In this document: positions 1 through 28,991 of the stretch, piece by piece
Numbering within the stretch: position 1 is the stretch's first letter
How the letters are laid out: each line of letters starts with the position of its first letter
NCBI GenBank assembly: GCA_038211855.1
Contig: JBBQVE010000005.1
Span: 33 to 64,032 of the forward strand
Origin: Candidatus Saccharimonadales bacterium
GTDB lineage: Bacteria; Patescibacteriota; Saccharimonadia; Saccharimonadales; SZUA-47
Direction of reading: 5' to 3'
DNA: 64,000 nt
Position numbers and translations under genes: made by a program
Notes under the pieces: generated by a model
The model's database searches: none
What the model saw: only the letters and a program-made list of their open reading frames with translations
Told to the model about the DNA's origin: nothing

Positions 1-67
1 TGGGCAAGGCAGATTGTGCAAAACTATTCGGAAGATTGCGTATACTGTTAAGCAGAAGAGGGAAGAA

Positions 68-1003
68 GTGAGAAAGCACCATTCATTTTTGTTTGCAGCT
101 GTTTTTGGCATCGTCGGTGCTGTGCTCATTCTGATCTCTCACGCAGCCACCCCTGTAAATAACGCCATCGAACCAGAATCAGGCGTGCTTACAGGGACGG
201 CGATCGCCAACATAGATACGACGGCCTCAAACAGTAAGTATGTCGCTTTTCAACCCCCAGCTAGCTGTTTGGTGGGTCAAGTGGGCACACCCCCCAACTG
301 TACGATCCCTCCAAGCACTACCACGTTGCCCCCAGGTAGCGTTTTACCCGACGATGCCACTTGTGCCGCCCGCGTCGTGAAAGCCCCTGAAATTCGCCCA
401 CAGAACGCCACACAGAATACCACTGCTGGCTCCAACAAGAATCTGACCGGCAGCGCCTTCCGGGCGAAGGTCGATGGCAATTTCACCGGCTCCACCGACG
501 AAATCCTGCAGTGGGTTGCCTGTAAGTGGGGAATCAACGGCGATGTCGTCCGTGCTCAAGCTGCCAAAGAATCGTACTGGACGATGAGCGCCAAAGGAGA
601 TTGGACGACTGTTGCGAGCTCGTGTCCGCCCGCGCATGGCCTCGGGGTCGATGGCACACCCGGCCAGTGTCCGGAAAGTTACAGCATTATTCAAGACAGA
701 TGGAATTACTTCGGTGGAGGGGCCAACCCGCCAATTAATAGCTGGCCAGAAGTAGAAACTTCAACCGCCTACGCACTTGATCTGGCCTATTCTTCGTGGC
801 GAGACTGTTATGAAGGTAATTACGGATGGCTCAACACCGTTGATCACACCGGTACCTATGCGGCGGGCGACCAGTGGGGCTGCGTCGGTGTTTGGTTTGC
901 TGGACGCTGGTTAACGACCGATGCTAACACCTACATCTCAGCCGTGCAGAATAACTACAACACCAAGATTTGGACGACGAGCAGCTTTATCAGCTATAGA
1001 TAA
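68..1003 (+). CDS. secreted or membrane-anchored protein with putative lysozyme-like (SLT-like) C-terminal domain
   Basis: ORF track 14..1003. GTG at 68 preceded by GAGGGA gives RKHH plus a hydrophobic signal-anchor. Short IEPESG...ASNSKYVAF...GTPPNC leader module. The C-terminal block ILQWVACKWGINGDVVRAQAAKESYW resembles the catalytic Glu-Ser region of lytic transglycosylases (by eye only). Confidence 0.55.
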   Translation: MRKHHSFLFAAVFGIVGAVLILISHAATPVNNAIEPESGVLTGTAIANIDTTASNSKYVAFQPPASCLVGQVGTPPNCTIPPSTTTLPPGSVLPDDATCAARVVKAPEIRPQNATQNTTAGSNKNLTGSAFRAKVDGNFTGSTDEILQWVACKWGINGDVVRAQAAKESYWTMSAKGDWTTVASSCPPAHGLGVDGTPGQCPESYSIIQDRWNYFGGGANPPINSWPEVETSTAYALDLAYSSWRDCYEGNYGWLNTVDHTGTYAAGDQWGCVGVWFAGRWLTTDANTYISAVQNNYNTKIWTTSSFISYR

Positions 1004-1260
1004 AAAGCGCATTAAGCTAGTACGATTTGGCTAGCTGTATAAGCGCACTATTGGGTCCGTTTTTAACATCCTCAGATATGCACATGAACAGAGACAAAAC
1101 AGAGAGAAAATGCTTTACCTTAACCACCGAGAGGCGTACACTGGTGGATAGGTCTAAAAAAACAAAAAGACCAAAACAAAAGTCTCGGACATCTACAAAA
1201 CACAAACAAAAACGTCTTAGCGGGTGATACCCAAGCTGCGAAGACTACAGGTACAACAAC

Positions 1261-4200
1261 ATGGTTCGTGCCTTCTTTGGGCATATTCTAAACAGTGTAA
1301 AGGCTGCGGTAAGGCAGCTTATTACTTTGTTTTCTGCAAAGACTACCCCTGTTGCGTATCTGAAGACGGCCACACTGATGGCCGTTTTTGTTATTCTGAC
1401 TACTGTTATTTCTGTCACAGGCGTGTTTTCTTATACGCGCGGGGGTGCGAGCGCAGCCGCGAACAGCAATCTCAACTTCCAGGCAAGACTGCTCAGTAAT
1501 ACCGGTAACCTCGTTGCTGATGGGTCGTACAATATCGAGTTTAAGATCTACAAGTCCGCTGCAGCTGGCACATCCGCCCAAAGCGTCTGTAGCTTGAACG
1601 CCAGCACCGACGACTGTTACTGGCTGGAAACCCGCAGCGGTGCCAATACCGTCACCGTGAAGAACGGCTACTTCAGCGTTAACCTTGGCTCAGTCACCGC
1701 CTTCGGCACAAGTATTCCATGGGACCAAGACCTCTGGATGAGTATGCGTATCGGCGGCATAGGCGCACCAAGCTGGGATACCGAAATGACGCCGCGCTTC
1801 AAACTCACAGCTGTGCCATACGCCTATCGCGCCGGCAAACTCCTCGACTCCACCAACACTAATGCATTCACTGCTGATGATCTGATCCAAAAAGCGCCGA
1901 CTGTCATCCAGACCCTCAACAGTACACTGGCCGCCATTCGCCTCAACCAACAAGGCACCGGCGGTCTTTTGCAGTTGCAGAAAAGTGGCAGCGACATCTT
2001 CACCATCGACAACGGTGGCTCGATTACTTCGGTCAGTACGGGGACGAACACGTTTAACCAGGGGGCGACGGGGCAGTTGAGTCTGGTGTCAGATTTGACT
2101 TCGGCCTCGCGCTCGACCTCGTCGTTTTCAATCACGCAGGCTGATAACGCGACAAATAGTCAGTCAGCACCCCTGTTGACGGTCACAAATAGTGATCTTA
2201 CTTCAACAGGCTCGCTTGCCACACTGACCCAGTCATCGACCGCTGCTGCCGACGCCCTGGTAATCTCGACGGCCAGCAATACTACGGCGATATCAGTCAC
2301 GACGCCGGCTGGCGGCACTGCCCTCACGACCGTTGGGTTAACTTCTGGTACGGCCATCAATGCGGACACGGTCACGACTGGTACGGCACTGTCAGATGCC
2401 GGCCTGACATCGGGCACGGGCCTGACGGTTGGCAGCGGCAACGCGATAACAACGGGGGTGGGCTTGCTCTACAATACTACGAGTAACGCCTTCACAACGG
2501 GGAAAGCCTTGAATGTAACAGGGTCCGCTGGTGCGATTACCGCCGATTTCAGCGGGGCTTATATCAACGTGAATCCAACCCGCACACTCACGGCGGCTGC
2601 GACTCGTACTGACTCGGGTAACTTCCTGAATCTGACGCGCGTAGATACGGTGAACAATGCGGGGGCCACGTACAACGTCATCGGTGCACTTGCCAATCTG
2701 CAAAGTACCTGTACGCAGACGGCAGGATCCTGCTCTGATAGCTCAAATATCCTGAACTTGAGCCAACAGTATGCCAATGCAACAGGGGCGGTGTTGAACG
2801 TGAGCGGAGCGGGTACAGGTAATCTTGCGGTGTTTAACGCGACAAATGCCGCAGCAAACGGCGTGTCAATCAATGTGCAATCAAACTCCAACACTAAGTA
2901 TGCCTTTAAGGTGACCAGTAACAACGGTGCCATCAATGGCTTGAATGTGCTTGCCGATGGTACGGTGCAGCTACCAATCCAAACCACTAATGGATTTGTG
3001 AAAACGAGTGGCGGCAATGGCTCGCTGACCGTCGCCACATCAATCGGGCTAGGCTCAACAGATGTCAGTGGCACGCTCGGCATTAGTAACGGCGGCACTA
3101 ATAGTACCGCGACGCCTACCGCCGGCGGCATTGCTTACGGTGCTGGCACCGCCTTTGCCTTCACGGGTGTAGGCATCGCGGGGCAGTGTTTGACCAGCAA
3201 TGCTGGCAGTGCGCCAACCTGGGCAAGTTGTGCTGGCACCGGTTCGGGTACAACTTTGCAGGCGGCCTTCAACAACGGCAATACGATTTTGACAACCGAC
3301 GCTCGGGACTTCAGCGTAACGCTTGCAAACACCACGACCAGTCCAAATGCCTTTATCAATATTGCAGCTGCATCAACCGGCCGCTTTGCTGTACAAAATA
3401 ACGGAGCCGACATATTTGGTGTGAACACAGCAAGTGGTGTGACGATCGGCGCCAACGCTGCCATCAATGGCAACACGATAATCGGCAGCGCTACTACCAA
3501 CCGTCTTACGCTTAACGCGCAGATCTTAGGCACAAACGCATTGGTCTTCCAGGGCGCCACCGATAATGCTTTTGCGACGACCTTTGCCATCACTGACCCA
3601 ACCGCCAACCGCACCATTACGGTGCCAGATGCCAGCGGCACGCTCGACTTTACAGACCTCGCACAAACCTTTAGTGCGTCCAAAACCTTCGGTGCCGGAC
3701 TGTCGATTACGAGCGGCCAAAGTTTGACGATAAATGCCAGTACCTTCACGAGTCTGACTGGCAATAACCTCACCAACACCGCTGGCGTCCTTGGCACCAC
3801 CAACAACCCAAGCTTTACGACGAGCGTCACGACACCGCTCCTCACCAGCTCGGCTGGCCTGACGATTAACAGCGGTAACAATACAATTTCAATCGGTGCC
3901 ACCAACACGGCCATCCAACGCATCGCGTCAGGTACCTTAACCTTCGACCTGAATGATGCTGGAGCTACGACCTTCGCCATCGACAACAGCGCAGCTGGCG
4001 CGGCAAGTATTAACTTGGTTGATGGTGGTCTTCAAACAGCTGGTACGAGCCGCCTGACAAATGCCGGCGTCTTGCAGAATATTACCGGGCTGACGATTGC
4101 TAGCGGCGGTGCAAGTGTCACAGGCGCTGCAACCTTCGTGAACGATGTTGCCATAAATGGCAATACCACTATCGGAAGCGCTACTACCAACCGTCTTACG

Positions 4201-24452: not shown

Positions 24453-25880
24453 ATGAGTAGTAAAAAATTATTGCCTCCAAAAACGGGGGATTTGTCCGAT
24501 TGGTATACTGGCGTCATTGCTTTGGCTGAACTTGCTGATTATGGCCCCGCAAAAGGGACGATGATTATTCGACCTTATGGCTATGCGATCTGGGAAAACA
24601 TAGTTGCTGCGCTCGATGCCGAAATCAAAGCGAAAGGCGTCGGTAATGCTTATTTCCCATTGTTTATTCCAATGAGCTTACTGCAAAAAGAGGCCGACCA
24701 CGTACAGGGTTTTGCACCAGAACTGGCTGTCGTGACGCATGGCGGCGGGGAAGAGCTCGAAGAAAAACTCGTCGTTCGTCCAACCAGCGAAACCATCATG
24801 TACCAGAGTTACTCCAAGTGGGTACAGTCGTGGCGCGATTTGCCGATTCTGATTAACCAGTGGAACAACGTTGTTCGTTGGGAGAAACGCACCATACCGT
24901 TCCTACGTACTAGCGAATTTTTGTGGCAAGAAGGTCACACTGCTCACGCCACACACGAAGAAGCTTCGGCTATGCAACTGTGGGGCATGGAAGCCTATGC
25001 GCGCATCTACCGGGACTTCATGGCAATGGACGGCTATGAGGGCTACAAGAGCGAAAGCGAGAAATTCGCCGGTGCCGACAACACCTTGACGTACGAGTCT
25101 TTGATGCCCAGCGGCAAGGCATTACAGGCCTGTACATCGCATGATTTAGGGCAGAACTTCAGCAGAGTATTTGATATCTCTTTTCAGGATAAAGACGGAG
25201 TCAATCAGTTTGTCTGGCAGACCAGCTGGGGCTTTAGTACACGCAGTATCGGCGGCTTAATTCTGGCTCATGGTGACGACAACGGCCTACGACTACCTCC
25301 GAAGATCGCACCGACGCAAGTTGTGATAGTCCCTGTTAAATCAGATGATAAGGTAGTCATGGATTATTGCGATAAACTGGTAGCCTCGCTCAAAGGCAAG
25401 GTCCGCGTGGTGCTTGATGATCGTGACGACGAAAGCTTCGGCTTCCGCTTGAATAAATGGGAAGTTAAAGGTGTGCCACTCATCTTAAAAATCGGTGGCA
25501 AAGAAGCCGAAGCAGGTACGGTAAGCGCTAAACGCCGCTATGATGGTGCCGAGCTGACATTCTCGCCGGATACGCTCGCAGAAGAGGTCGCCGTTGAACT
25601 CGATACTATCCAGGCGATGATGCTGAAAGCGAGCCAGGAGTATCTCAAAAACGAAACCCGTGAAGCCAAAGACTACGATGAGTTCAAACAGATTCTCAAA
25701 GACCATAAAGGTTTTGTTAAGGTGTATTGGAATGACAACGCCGAAATTGAGAAGAAGATCAAAGACGAGACCAAGGCTACCAGCCGTTGTAAGCCGCTCC
25801 ATTTGCGGGGCGGTGAAGGCAAAGACTTCTTTACGGGCAAACCGGCCAAGGATGTTTGGATTTTTGCCCAATCCTATTAA
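24453..25880 (+). CDS. proS: prolyl-tRNA synthetase, archaeal/eukaryote-like type
   Basis: 475 aa. The N-terminus SDWYTGVIALAELADYGPAKGTMIIRPYGYAIWE is present. There is no INS editing domain, and the C-terminal zinc-type domain ends in ...FAQSY. Confidence 0.95.
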   Translation: MSSKKLLPPKTGDLSDWYTGVIALAELADYGPAKGTMIIRPYGYAIWENIVAALDAEIKAKGVGNAYFPLFIPMSLLQKEADHVQGFAPELAVVTHGGGEELEEKLVVRPTSETIMYQSYSKWVQSWRDLPILINQWNNVVRWEKRTIPFLRTSEFLWQEGHTAHATHEEASAMQLWGMEAYARIYRDFMAMDGYEGYKSESEKFAGADNTLTYESLMPSGKALQACTSHDLGQNFSRVFDISFQDKDGVNQFVWQTSWGFSTRSIGGLILAHGDDNGLRLPPKIAPTQVVIVPVKSDDKVVMDYCDKLVASLKGKVRVVLDDRDDESFGFRLNKWEVKGVPLILKIGGKEAEAGTVSAKRRYDGAELTFSPDTLAEEVAVELDTIQAMMLKASQEYLKNETREAKDYDEFKQILKDHKGFVKVYWNDNAEIEKKIKDETKATSRCKPLHLRGGEGKDFFTGKPAKDVWIFAQSY

Positions 25881-26557: not shown

Positions 26558-26559
26558 TT

Positions 26560-26587
26560 TTGACACAGAAAACAATAATGATACAAT
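26560..26587 (+). promoter_or_regulatory. consensus promoter (TTGACA-16 nt, extended -10 TGA-TACAAT) immediately after the greA stop
   Basis: TTGACA at 26560-26565 and TGATACAAT at 26579-26587. Confidence 0.6.
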
Positions 26588-26593
26588 AATTCA

Positions 26594-26717
26594 TGGTTAT
26601 GAAATACATGGACGCAACAGATAATAAGAATACCGATACCAAGGCTGCTGCCTAGCGTTCTTCTTATTCCCAAAAAGAAAATCAGAACCCTCGGCAAACA
26701 GCCGAGGGTTTTTCTTT
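26594..26717 (+). ncRNA. promoter/terminator-bounded transcript of about 120 nt: candidate sRNA or leaderless micro-ORF mRNA
   Basis: It lies between the promoter at 26560-26587 and the strong terminator at 26686-26717. It contains a 20-codon ORF (26593..26655, MVMKYMDATDNKNTDTKAAA) with no SD, and an internal stem AATAAGAA / TTCTTATT. Confidence 0.35.
26686..26717 (+). terminator. rho-independent terminator
   Basis: Perfect 10-bp stem AACCCTCGGC / GCCGAGGGTT, 5-nt loop AAACA, followed by TTTCTTT. Confidence 0.85.
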
Positions 26718-26798
26718 GGGTCGATAGCAAGGCCACCCGAAGAGGAAAGACTTATCTAGGACGACCGAACATACTAAATCTGAACATGGAGAAAAGAG

Positions 26799-27005
26799 AT
26801 GAGAACGTTTTACAAAGCACAATTGTATGAAGTATACGGGGAACCGACTCCACAAATGGTGCGTGAATTCCTAGAAAGTGGTCTTGGCATCATGGAAGAT
26901 TATACAGGCGAAGTGAGCGGGCTCATGCGAGCCAACGGTCAAGAGGCTCCGCAATTGCCCGTGTTTGTTGGCGGGACAGCCTTAGCGCTTTCTCAAGAAG
27001 CGTAA
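26799..27005 (+). CDS. hypothetical small acidic protein (68 aa)
   Basis: ATG preceded by GGAGAAAAGAG (a good SD), directly upstream of lysS. No recognisable family. Confidence 0.5.
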   Translation: MRTFYKAQLYEVYGEPTPQMVREFLESGLGIMEDYTGEVSGLMRANGQEAPQLPVFVGGTALALSQEA

Positions 27006-27027
27006 CTACTGTAAAATAAGAGGTACT

Positions 27028-28986
27028 ATGGCAACACTCAAAGACTTCCGTGACGAACGGCTACGCAAAATCGAAGAACTCAAAAAACTTGGCGTAAATC
27101 CGTATCCTGCCAAAGCCTCGCGGACCAACAAAAATGCCGAGATTACCGAGAAGTTTACCAAGCTTGAAAATAAGCAGGTGACTGTCGTCGGGCGCATTAA
27201 ATCTATCCGTAAGTTCGGCAAAATTGCCTTCGTAGTCATCAAAGATGATTCCGGCTCGATACAGTTATTCTGGCGCACGAGCGATGCTGAGGTAAATTAC
27301 GCAAATAGCGAAGTTTCGATGAAAGATATAGCACTGCTAGACAGCGGCGACTTCGTGGAGTGTGTTGGCAAAGTCATCAAAACTCAAACGGGCGAAATAT
27401 CCGTAGAAGTAGAAAAACTGCGCCTGCTCACGAAGGCGCTGCGACCGATGCCAAGCGATCAAGAAGGCTTTACCGACAAAGAAGAGCGCTTCCGCCGCCG
27501 CTACGTCGATATGAACGTCAATCAGGACGTCCATGATCGATTCATCCGTCGCAGCAATTTCTGGCAGGCAACGCGCCAATTTATGCTCGACAACAGCTTT
27601 CTAGAGATTAATATTCCAGTCCTAGAGCATACCACCGGCGGTGCTGATGCCAACCCGTTCGTCACCCATATGGACGCCTTGAACGAAGATTTTTATCTGC
27701 GAATTAGCCATGAGTTGCCACTGAAGCGACTCATTGGGGCCGGCTACGAAAAAGTTTTTGATATTGGCCCACGTTTCCGCAATGAAAACTATTCCGATGA
27801 GCATTTGCCGGAGCATATCGCCATGGAATGGTACTGGGCTTATGCCGATTGGCAGGATGGTATGCAGCTGATGGAAGATATGTTCGCCTCTATTCTGCAA
27901 AAGACTTTTGGTACGCTCCAGTTCAAGGTAAACGGCAAAGACGTCGATATGAGCAAAGCGTGGGAGCGATGGGACTATGCCGAGACGATCAAAAAGCACT
28001 ACGGTATAGACATTTTCAACTGCACGATTGCTGATGTACAAACACAGTTAAAAAAGTTCAAATTAGAAGTTGAAAAAGCCGAAAATATTCCGCGTGGCAT
28101 CGATAAGTTATGGAAGAATATCCGTAAAGACGTCGCCGGACCTGTGTGGCTCATAAACACGCCGGCTTTTATTTCGCCACTCTCAAAATCTGATGATCAG
28201 AATCCTGATTTCACACAGCGCGCTCAGGCGGTGATCGGTGGTTCGGAACTCTGTAATTTATTCTCAGAACTTAACGATCCAGTCGATCAGCTCAATCGCT
28301 TTTTGGAACAACAACAGATGCGCGACGCCGGTGACGACGAAGCCATGATGCTTGATATAGATTTCGTCGAAATGCTCGAATACGGCATGCCACCAACCTG
28401 CGGTCTCGGCTTTTCGGAGCGCGTTTTCTGGATTTTTGAAGGTGTTACGGCGCGTGAAGGCGTACCGTTCCCCCAGCTTCGCCAAGAAATAGACGGTGTC
28501 ACCAAAGCTATCTATTCCGAAGTATTCGCAGACACGAAGCGTGGCAAAAAATCTATTGACCGGCCGCAGGACTTTAGCAAACGGATTGTGTCAGTAGTTC
28601 GAAAGGATCTTGAGCCATGGCGTGTTGCCAATGCAGTTGCGCATATGGAAACAATCATCGGAAGCAAAGTACCAAATAAAGTCCTGACAAGCGGCGAAAA
28701 TTTCACCGGCACAGACAGCGTGAGTGTACCGCGAAATAGTCAGTTTCCAATTATTATCATGCGGGCCGACGAAAAGGAACTGCACAAACTATACGAAAAA
28801 GTAGCCAAAGCTAACCTTGTGCACCACGTTTTCATAAAAGAGATGCAAGACACCACCAGCGATCAAGAAATTATTGATACTTTGTCACAACAACCCATGA
28901 AAGATACTGAATTCTACGGTGTCAGCTTTTTTGCGTCCAATGAAAAAGCTGACGAGCTCACCAAGGGCTTGCAACTCTGGTCTTAA
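27028..28986 (+). CDS. lysS: lysyl-tRNA synthetase (class II) fused to a C-terminal DUF2000/PTH2-like domain
   Basis: N-terminal OB anticodon-binding domain and a class II core (FYLRISHELPLKRL, motif 3 GLGFSERVF). It is 652 aa, so residues after about 510 are an extra domain. Confidence 0.93.
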   Translation: MATLKDFRDERLRKIEELKKLGVNPYPAKASRTNKNAEITEKFTKLENKQVTVVGRIKSIRKFGKIAFVVIKDDSGSIQLFWRTSDAEVNYANSEVSMKDIALLDSGDFVECVGKVIKTQTGEISVEVEKLRLLTKALRPMPSDQEGFTDKEERFRRRYVDMNVNQDVHDRFIRRSNFWQATRQFMLDNSFLEINIPVLEHTTGGADANPFVTHMDALNEDFYLRISHELPLKRLIGAGYEKVFDIGPRFRNENYSDEHLPEHIAMEWYWAYADWQDGMQLMEDMFASILQKTFGTLQFKVNGKDVDMSKAWERWDYAETIKKHYGIDIFNCTIADVQTQLKKFKLEVEKAENIPRGIDKLWKNIRKDVAGPVWLINTPAFISPLSKSDDQNPDFTQRAQAVIGGSELCNLFSELNDPVDQLNRFLEQQQMRDAGDDEAMMLDIDFVEMLEYGMPPTCGLGFSERVFWIFEGVTAREGVPFPQLRQEIDGVTKAIYSEVFADTKRGKKSIDRPQDFSKRIVSVVRKDLEPWRVANAVAHMETIIGSKVPNKVLTSGENFTGTDSVSVPRNSQFPIIIMRADEKELHKLYEKVAKANLVHHVFIKEMQDTTSDQEIIDTLSQQPMKDTEFYGVSFFASNEKADELTKGLQLWS

Positions 28987-28991
28987 AAAAA

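Follow-up and report, generated by a model that had tools for sequence, protein, structure and literature searches.

Why does the lysyl-tRNA synthetase (LysRS) encoded in a 64,000-nucleotide stretch of DNA from a Candidatus Saccharimonadales bacterium (contig JBBQVE010000005.1; this whole stretch is called the window here) continue for about 145 residues beyond the end of the enzyme, and what could such an extension do on a LysRS? A sequence-only reading had taken it for DUF2000, a family with a fold like that of peptidyl-tRNA hydrolase 2 (PTH2) and with no assigned function, and had proposed from the covalent fusion an action of DUF2000 on aminoacyl- or peptidyl-tRNA, for instance in trans-editing or quality control of Lys-tRNA. 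Our analysis shows that the extension is DUF2000 and that the fusion with LysRS is real and recurrent. As to its role, we tentatively favor a tethered hydrolase that would proofread tRNA(Lys) after aminoacylation.

The fusion gene is an uninterrupted open reading frame (ORF) of 652 codons plus a stop codon at 27028..28986 on the forward strand, where all features described below are also located. All peptide strings quoted in the sequence-only reading are found in its translation, and the interval 28558-28986 given there for the extension corresponds to residues 511-652 and the stop codon. The architecture was determined with Pfam and NCBIfam. An N-terminal OB-fold anticodon-binding domain (residues 51-134, 27178..27429; PF01336, tRNA_anti-codon, E 2e-15) is followed by the class II (D/K/N) catalytic core (residues 151-483, 27478..28476; PF00152, tRNA-synt_2, E 2.3e-61). 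Both lysS equivalog models of NCBIfam exceed their cutoffs over residues 6-487, TIGR00499 (lysS_bact) with 438.2 bits against 427.6 and NF001756 with 481.8 bits against 468. By these profile matches the N-terminal part is a genuine class II lysS, and it is the single LysRS within the window. The string VPFPQLRQE, by which the end of the core had been marked, occupies residues 479-487. Plain LysRS relatives stop at about 501-505 residues, so that a core end near residue 505 had been placed accurately.

In a Pfam search of the extension, DUF2000 (PF09391) matched residues 518-651 over profile positions 1-132 of 133, with 93.6 bits (cutoff 25) and E 1.2e-26, well beyond what chance would give. 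The domain itself extends over residues 518-652 (28579..28983). None of the known families that edit aminoacyl-tRNA (tRNA_SAD/AlaX, B3_4, YbaK/INS tRNA_edit, DTD) was called by Pfam in residues 492-652. Between core and domain lies a linker (residues 488-517, 28489..28578), recognizable by its identity, length variation and low predicted local distance difference test scores (pLDDT). It is made up of a conserved short helical segment (E.D..TK.IY.EVF, about residues 490-500), a hypervariable stretch of variable length and a conserved QDFS leading into DUF2000. The full-length AlphaFold2 model has a pLDDT of 79.4 and a predicted template modelling score (pTM) of 0.66 and yields no usable placement of the domains relative to each other; residues 505-511 of the linker fall below a pLDDT of 50, for which reason we regard the linker as a flexible tether. 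DUF2000 is joined to LysRS by this flexible linker of about 30 residues.

The fold of the extension could be assigned independently of Pfam. Atu0240 (2GAX) is the sole solved DUF2000 structure; the extension alone matches it with a phmmer E of 1e-6, which drops to 2.7e-30 with the family profile. An AlphaFold2 model of residues 518-652, built from a 37-sequence alignment, reached a mean pLDDT of 97.2 and a pTM of 0.89. When this model was compared to the PDB with Foldseek, 2GAX ranked first (TM 0.83, root-mean-square deviation 2.4 A over 134 columns). It was followed by PTH2 structures only (3ERJ, 2ZV3, 1XTY, 1Q7S/Bit1, 1WN2 and 1RLK), all at probability 1.0 and with target-normalised TM of 0.63-0.75; no other fold in this search reached an E below 0.01. 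Sequence profiles were less clear-cut. In Pfam the extension stayed below the threshold of the PTH2 family (PF01981), reaching 14.4 of the required 23 bits (E 0.046), and PTH2 chains of the PDB matched the DUF2000 profile with E of only 0.49-1.9. Comparing the two profiles by hhalign gave a probability of 83-85% and E of 9e-6 to 1e-6, co-linear over 109-111 columns. Given this link between profiles and folds on one side and the sub-threshold HMMER score on the other, the domain is a member of DUF2000, PTH2-like in fold as the sequence-only reading had it, and stands outside the PTH2 family proper. With Atu0240 it shares the full-length profile match and the invariant N, D, T and M. Atu0240 differs in that it carries Phe at the near-invariant His position and is a standalone Agrobacterium protein of 135 residues with 22-25% identity to the window copy, while the latter belongs to a subfamily centered on the candidate phyla radiation (CPR) and often fused to LysRS.

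We then asked how often this architecture occurs. Scanning GTDB species representatives with a DUF2000 motif yielded 57 loci. In 37 of them DUF2000 is in frame with a LysRS core; of these, 35 are complete, one has a frameshift and one is truncated by the end of its contig. The remaining 20 are standalone ORFs of 141-194 residues. Almost all of the nearest loci, at 52-69% identity, carry the label Candidatus Saccharibacteria or Saccharimonadales, which places the window in a Saccharibacteria (TM7) genome and thus in the CPR. Further loci were found in other Patescibacteria (Levyi-, Dojka-, Ames-, Doudna-, Nomura-, Shapiro- and Colwellbacteria, Paceibacterota, Peregrinibacteria, WWE3) and also in Babeliales, Chlamydiae and some metagenome-assembled genomes (MAGs) of Gammaproteobacteria; the fusion itself occurs across CPR/Patescibacteria and in some of the gammaproteobacterial MAGs. 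When 1.84 billion cluster representatives were searched exhaustively with phmmer, 107 matched, and 28 of these have at least 230 residues. All but one of these 28 have a LysRS core directly upstream, the exception being a spurious repetitive protein. Of ten fusion partners tested, nine exceeded the cutoffs of the lysS models, and lysS was the best match of the remaining one. No other synthetase and no other type of protein was found as N-terminal partner among the 57 loci and the 28 long representatives. The fusion is thus recurrent, and its partner is always LysRS.

Standalone DUF2000 is abundant and fills more than 7,600 clusters at the 90% identity level. The profile search at this level is dominated by near-identical Agrobacterium proteins and is of little use for judging diversity. 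In a crude neighbor-joining tree fused and standalone copies are interleaved, with at least three fused clades, suggesting that DUF2000 and LysRS may have been joined or split repeatedly. Among 14 fused orthologues from Saccharimonadales the mean identity is 67% in the core, 62% in DUF2000 and 49% in the linker, which varies in length. The value for DUF2000 lies close to that of the core, and the domain is under constraint where it is present. The architecture already exists in databases, as these proteins are publicly named lysine--tRNA ligase and their precomputed Pfam strings list PF00152 and PF09391. A literature search returned no publication on the LysRS-DUF2000 fusion or on any function of DUF2000, Atu0240 or PF09391, and the family has no assigned function. 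Many public short DUF2000 proteins of about 200-220 residues are fragments of fused LysRS produced by frameshift artefacts. One fused locus (L013, DATHJH010000012.1), labelled Candidatus Limnocylindria (Chloroflexota), nests within the Saccharimonadales clade with 59% domain identity; this contig is probably mis-binned.

We compared conservation in 58 fused and 36 standalone DUF2000 domains, whose overall identity is only about 25%. The same positions are kept in both groups: W531, N535, H539, G545, E605, M606, D612, G631 and T645, at 90-100% in fused and 83-97% in standalone domains. N535 and H539, in the helix-1 motif N-A-V-A-H (28630..28644), are the top-conserved residues of the family with 100% in fused and 97% in standalone domains, and the same values apply to T645 of the C-terminal (L)TK motif (28960..28962). 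For the EMxxTxxD motif (E605-M606...T609...D612, 28840..28863), which contains the candidate catalytic acidic residues, the corresponding values are 93/83% for E605, 100/92% for M606 and 100/94% for D612. The window copy has all of the family-wide residues N535, H539, E605, M606, D612 and T645, each of which is found in at least 83% of the 94 domains. By hhalign, the invariant PTH2 residues His24, Gln49 and Thr109 (numbered as in M. jannaschii) are matched by H539, Q572 and T645, the last of which is aligned to the Thr of the PTH2 'iDkiTGhLkL' motif; N535 lies one position off the invariant Gln21. D612 paired with the invariant Asp of the PTH2 'DAG' motif (Mj D81 / Ss D86) in four of four hhalign settings. 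The placement of gaps over 603-611 shifts between these settings and E605 is the ungapped counterpart, which makes E605 an alternative equivalent. Conservation of polar residues at 93-100% in fused and 83-97% in standalone domains, at such low overall identity, argues for an active site rather than a scaffold.

We also examined what occupies the 3' end of lysS in close relatives. For this the LysRS core alone was used as query and the nearest 120 clusters (74-92% identical) were considered. The closest relative (P0233, locus L062) has a LysRS core 92% identical to that of the window and the same gene order of uppS, rseP, a Rce1-like gene, proS, greA, lysS, a convergent membrane protein gene, ABC-F, ABC and FtsX. 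Its lysS terminates at residue 505 and shares an overlap with the start of the next gene, a lysA-like diaminopimelate decarboxylase gene (L062:7515-8741), which scores 295.3 bits against TIGR01048 with a cutoff of 297.9; this gene is translationally coupled to lysS and stands in place of the fused DUF2000. Homology between both loci in blastn stops at position 28527 of the window and restarts at 28990, leaving a segment without counterpart (28528..28989) that comprises the variable linker and DUF2000. Neither the window nor the L062 locus holds a remnant of the other's insert. From these breaks and the lack of remnants, 28528-28989 behaves as a cassette in a variable slot at the lysS 3' end, a cassette-like replacement of the lysA-like gene.

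Other modules are found in the same proteins. A 75%-identical LysRS among the 120 nearest (P0335) carries an AlaX-like (tRNA_SAD) module instead of DUF2000, joined at the exact DUF2000 junction and with intact HxxxH and CxxxH motifs. Two further proteins combine DUF2000 with a module of an editing type, one as LysRS-B3_4-DUF2000, with the PheRS-type B3_4 between core and DUF2000 (P0135), and one as LysRS-DUF2000-AlaX-like (P0185). HDIG domains are fused to or adjoin DUF2000 in at least six cases. The order is LysRS-DUF2000-HDIG in L054 (2468-4984, HDIG at residues 677-752), P0178, P0190 and P0196, and LysRS-HDIG-DUF2000 in L028:1805-4399, where the HD domain was recognized by eye from a GLLHDIDY motif in the middle region and was not called by Pfam. 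The nearest solved relatives of these HDIG domains are YqeK-type hydrolases of diadenosine tetraphosphate (Ap4A; 8WMY, E 3.7e-5). This linkage is suggestive because LysRS is reported to make Ap4A (PMC7244319).

Genes directly abutting standalone DUF2000 include SpeG/RimL-like GCN5-related N-acetyltransferases (GNATs; L029:3451-3984 and L018:3793-4332), a LysO lysine exporter gene (L038:3394-3975; two LysO genes were counted among 74 neighbors), a NUDIX gene (L035:3516-3977) and an HDIG gene (L043:3383-3961). LysO exports lysine and confers resistance to the lysine antimetabolite thialysine (PMC8498466). Each of the LysO, GNAT and NUDIX neighbors is rare; together they hint at the handling of lysine analogues or nucleotide by-products.

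Taken with the LysRS partner, these observations lead us to the reading that DUF2000 is a tethered hydrolase for post-transfer proofreading of mischarged or lysine-analogue aminoacyl-tRNA(Lys). We hold it with a little less than even confidence. In this mechanism tRNA(Lys) would be held by the anticodon-binding and catalytic domains of LysRS. Should a wrong acyl group be present at the 3' end, the mobile tethered DUF2000 would capture the acyl-A76 end and hydrolyze the ester in a pocket of N535, H539, Q572, E605, D612 and T645, corresponding to the PTH2 active-site region, and the freed tRNA(Lys) would be recharged with lysine by LysRS. The preferred substrate would be a mischarged aminoacyl group, be it a non-lysine amino acid or an analogue of lysine (Ser, Thr, Orn, Arg or thialysine), followed in likelihood by an N-blocked or peptidyl group. 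We favor a mischarged or analogue group because DUF2000 shares its attachment point with an AlaX-type editing domain, is co-fused with B3_4 and AlaX-like modules, sits on an enzyme without such a domain and has LysO and GNAT genes in its surroundings. A post-transfer editing domain is absent from canonical class II LysRS, which edits homocysteine, homoserine and ornithine by pre-transfer cyclisation in the active site only; it falls to freestanding ProXp-ST factors to clear the Ser- and Thr-tRNAs that LysRS and other synthetases mischarge (PMC7373986). We found no description of editing domains on LysRS in the literature search. The Rosetta-stone proposal of the sequence-only reading, an action of the domain on aminoacyl- or peptidyl-tRNA, here tRNA(Lys), is strengthened, LysRS being the only partner seen and editing domains occurring in the same slot or polypeptide. 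The analysis shows the identity, fold, conservation, tether, partner specificity and accessory distribution of the domain and its positional equivalence with an AlaX-type editing domain; that the domain is catalytic, that acyl-tRNA(Lys) is its substrate and which acyl group it removes is what we infer.

Several observations weigh against this reading. DUF2000 on LysRS is accessory and patchily distributed: only 11 of the 120 nearest LysRS clusters carry PF09391, and about 108 are plain enzymes of about 490-525 residues, so that LysRS can dispense with the domain. That all close relatives are fused, as the DUF2000-seeded search seemed to show, was a bias of that search, exposed by the LysRS-seeded one, and was rejected. 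Of the 20 standalone loci only one has lysS within 4 kb, no strong operon partner emerges, and Atu0240 adjoins an AraC-type regulator and lepA, without any tRNA-related hint. The PTH2 threshold is missed, as described above, and the lysines of the PTH2 GKGK motif (Mj K15/K17, Ss K18) have no conserved counterpart in a loop that is two residues shorter; the position aligned to the GKGK lysine (recorded as R531) varies between R, Q, K, E and P across the family. Reportedly, the 'DAG' Asp is catalytic in PTH2 and one GKGK Lys (S. solfataricus Lys18) is needed for its activity. The catalytic acidic residue could be either D612 or E605. The median isoelectric point (pI) is 6.15 for fused and 5.64 for standalone DUF2000, compared with a pI near 9 in four of five PTH2 enzymes, and such a mildly acidic domain argues against autonomous tRNA binding, chiefly for the many standalone copies. 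Finally, the hypervariable flexible tether is unlike the fixed geometry of classical cis-editing domains.

The comparison to known systems reflects the same mixture. With PTH2/Bit1 (PF01981) the domain has in common the alpha/beta fold, the co-linear profile alignment and equivalents of the invariant His, Gln and Thr, with D612 or E605 as candidate counterpart of the 'DAG' Asp. Apart from the score, lysines and charge already mentioned, it differs by insertions of about 20 residues that include an extra beta-hairpin and the EMxxTxxD helix, while the enzymes of the PTH2 family are freestanding proteins active on every peptidyl-tRNA. The appended post-transfer editing domains of class II synthetases (AlaRS/AlaX, ThrRS tRNA_SAD, PheRS B3/4, ProRS INS/YbaK/ProXp-ST) are a parallel in concept, being hydrolytic modules in covalent linkage to a synthetase that presumably work at the acyl-A76 end and have freestanding paralogues in other genomes; within the clade of the window LysRS the AlaX-like module uses the same attachment point. 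They have an unrelated fold and no sequence match to the extension, and lack its long hypervariable tether. LysX, the mycobacterial MprF-LysRS fusion, likewise joins a class II LysRS to a domain that uses the acyl-tRNA(Lys) of its partner. There the LysRS part is C-terminal and follows a membrane lysyl-phosphatidylglycerol synthase, whereas the window protein matches the LysX model NF002821 in the LysRS part only (373.5 bits with a cutoff of 742, profile 623-1099) and has no MprF or transmembrane region.

A first alternative retains the ancestral PTH2 chemistry: DUF2000 would be a dedicated hydrolase of peptidyl- or N-acyl-aminoacyl-tRNA(Lys), feeding dropped-off peptidyl- or N-acetylated Lys-tRNA(Lys) into recharging. 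Peptidyl-tRNA hydrolysis is the only known activity of the PTH2 fold, and a His, Gln, Thr and acidic residue are kept at PTH2-invariant positions. tRNA(Lys) is reported to be the limiting tRNA upon failure of Pth in E. coli (Heurgue-Hamard et al. 1996, EMBO J 15:2826, cited in PMC9973355), and this would account for LysRS being the only partner. GNAT toxins acetylate aminoacyl-tRNA and Pth reverses this acetylation, so the GNAT genes abutting two standalone copies fit as well; these GNATs, however, resemble SpeG, RimL or ArsN and are unlike the known tRNA-acetylating toxins. The slot, moreover, is common to domains that edit aminoacyl-tRNA and not to ribosome-rescue factors, and the loss of the GKGK lysines together with the acidic character of the domain counts against PTH2 chemistry. 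Bacteria normally carry an essential Pth1; a tblastn query with E. coli Pth1 turned up none in the window or the retrieved loci, which is uninformative as these cover the genomes only partially. Overall, we judge this alternative unlikely. PTH2-like genes are reported to travel with phage tRNA arrays, namely those of cluster C mycobacteriophages (PMC5966550), and this too would suit a peptidyl-tRNA hydrolase. A phage family of unknown function, phrog_1866, gives a weak full-length match to 28579-28983 of the window (E 0.0023, profile 11-125 of 126).

DUF2000 might also not act on tRNA at all. It could bind or hydrolyze a small molecule related to lysine or to adenylate, for instance a lysine antimetabolite (or the ester or amide of one), the aminoacyl-adenylate of a non-cognate amino acid or a by-product of the Ap4A type, or else sense such a molecule so as to tune LysRS. 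A lysine theme without tRNA is seen in the lysA-like gene in the slot of the closest relative and in the LysO gene abutting a standalone copy. The Ap4A-hydrolase-like HDIG in at least six cases and the NUDIX gene beside one copy would match the Ap4A made by LysRS, and the acidic domain and the lack of translation-related neighbors around most standalone copies point in the same direction. The fold, on the other hand, is known only from tRNA-ester hydrolases, and the polar residues equivalent to those of PTH2 are conserved. AlaX-like and B3_4 modules in the same proteins or slot direct attention to the tRNA 3' end, and each of the neighborhood signals was seen in one to four loci only. A purely small-molecule role therefore seems rather improbable to us.

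The domain could further be a non-catalytic appendage, comparable to other tRNA-binding or scaffold additions on synthetases: a PTH2 fold that has degenerated and now serves to hold the tRNA acceptor end, to protect Lys-tRNA(Lys), to make protein contacts or to aid folding or solubility. The lost PTH2 lysines and the failed PTH2 threshold speak for such a remnant, as does a domain that is dispensable among close relatives and sits on a flexible tether. We consider this quite improbable, since N535, H539, E605, D612 and T645 are conserved at 93-100% in fused and 83-97% in standalone domains in an active-site-like manner, an acidic domain is a poor generic RNA binder, and standalone copies are abundant in more than 7,600 clusters. 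That the fusion is an artefact of chimeric assembly, of a missed stop codon or frameshift or of two wrongly merged genes, as a lysS split in two in the related 799-kb Saccharibacteria chromosome OY970318.1 (L001/L010) might suggest, is hardly credible: heliorhodopsin and secA are also split there, so that this assembly carries frameshift errors and its split lysS supports a real fusion; the ORF of the window is uninterrupted; 35 other complete loci from independent assemblies have in-frame fusions, the same architecture in dozens of assemblies excluding an assembly chimera; 11 fused protein clusters lie near the window LysRS; and in the fused orthologues the domain is as conserved as the core.

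Returning to proofreading by a tethered hydrolase, a broader version can be formulated, which we regard as speculative and on balance doubtful. DUF2000 would be a new class of aminoacyl-tRNA proofreading enzyme on the PTH2 fold. Joined to LysRS, it would provide lysine with its first dedicated domain for post-transfer editing, possibly directed against lysine antimetabolites such as thialysine or ornithine acquired from hosts. Its thousands of standalone homologues would be trans-editing or detoxifying factors, and CPR LysRS would have at its C-terminus a swappable socket that accepts quality-control modules (DUF2000, AlaX-like, B3_4, HDIG). If true, a widespread and conserved add-on of PTH2 fold would change the textbook view of class II LysRS as an enzyme without a post-transfer editing domain, and a new fold would join the small set of aminoacyl-tRNA quality-control domains. 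If the peptidyl-tRNA(Lys) alternative were the correct one, the domain would represent the first Pth that is specific for one tRNA and coupled to recharging. An assayable hypothesis becomes available for a family of more than 7,600 clusters whose crystal structure has stood unexplained since 2006. The patchy, cassette-like spread in ultra-small episymbiotic and intracellular bacteria suggests that quality control of translation, or a defence against antimetabolites, is tailored to particular niches, a point of relevance to the way in which reduced genomes handle host-derived amino-acid pools. A role in anti-phage defence was considered and dropped, as PADLOC gave only a marginal partial GajB match (E 0.0017) that we take as chance.

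The surroundings of lysS showed some further features. The 470-nt gap between greA and lysS (26558-27027) has no ORF of at least 80 residues. It contains a strong sigma-70-like promoter match at 26560-26587 (11 of 12 positions, with TG extension) and a 10-bp GC-rich inverted repeat at 26686-26710, and no leader RNA was found in it by Rfam. At the same position relatives have a 61-residue ORF (L062) or a sortase gene (L001). In the whole window Rfam at gathering thresholds detected no RNA families and ARAGORN no tRNA genes, and hence there is no T-box or tRNA(Lys) context in the window. The neighboring prolyl-tRNA synthetase (24453-25880) is of the archaeal/eukaryote-like type and has a ProRS-C_1 domain. 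Pfam called no INS/YbaK editing insertion in it, so the ProRS of this organism would likewise have no cis post-transfer editing domain. Positions 1-4000, where Rfam detected no rRNA, have a GC content of 0.52-0.555 compared with about 0.45-0.51 in the remaining window. In OY970318.1 the heliorhodopsin gene is located just downstream of lysS.

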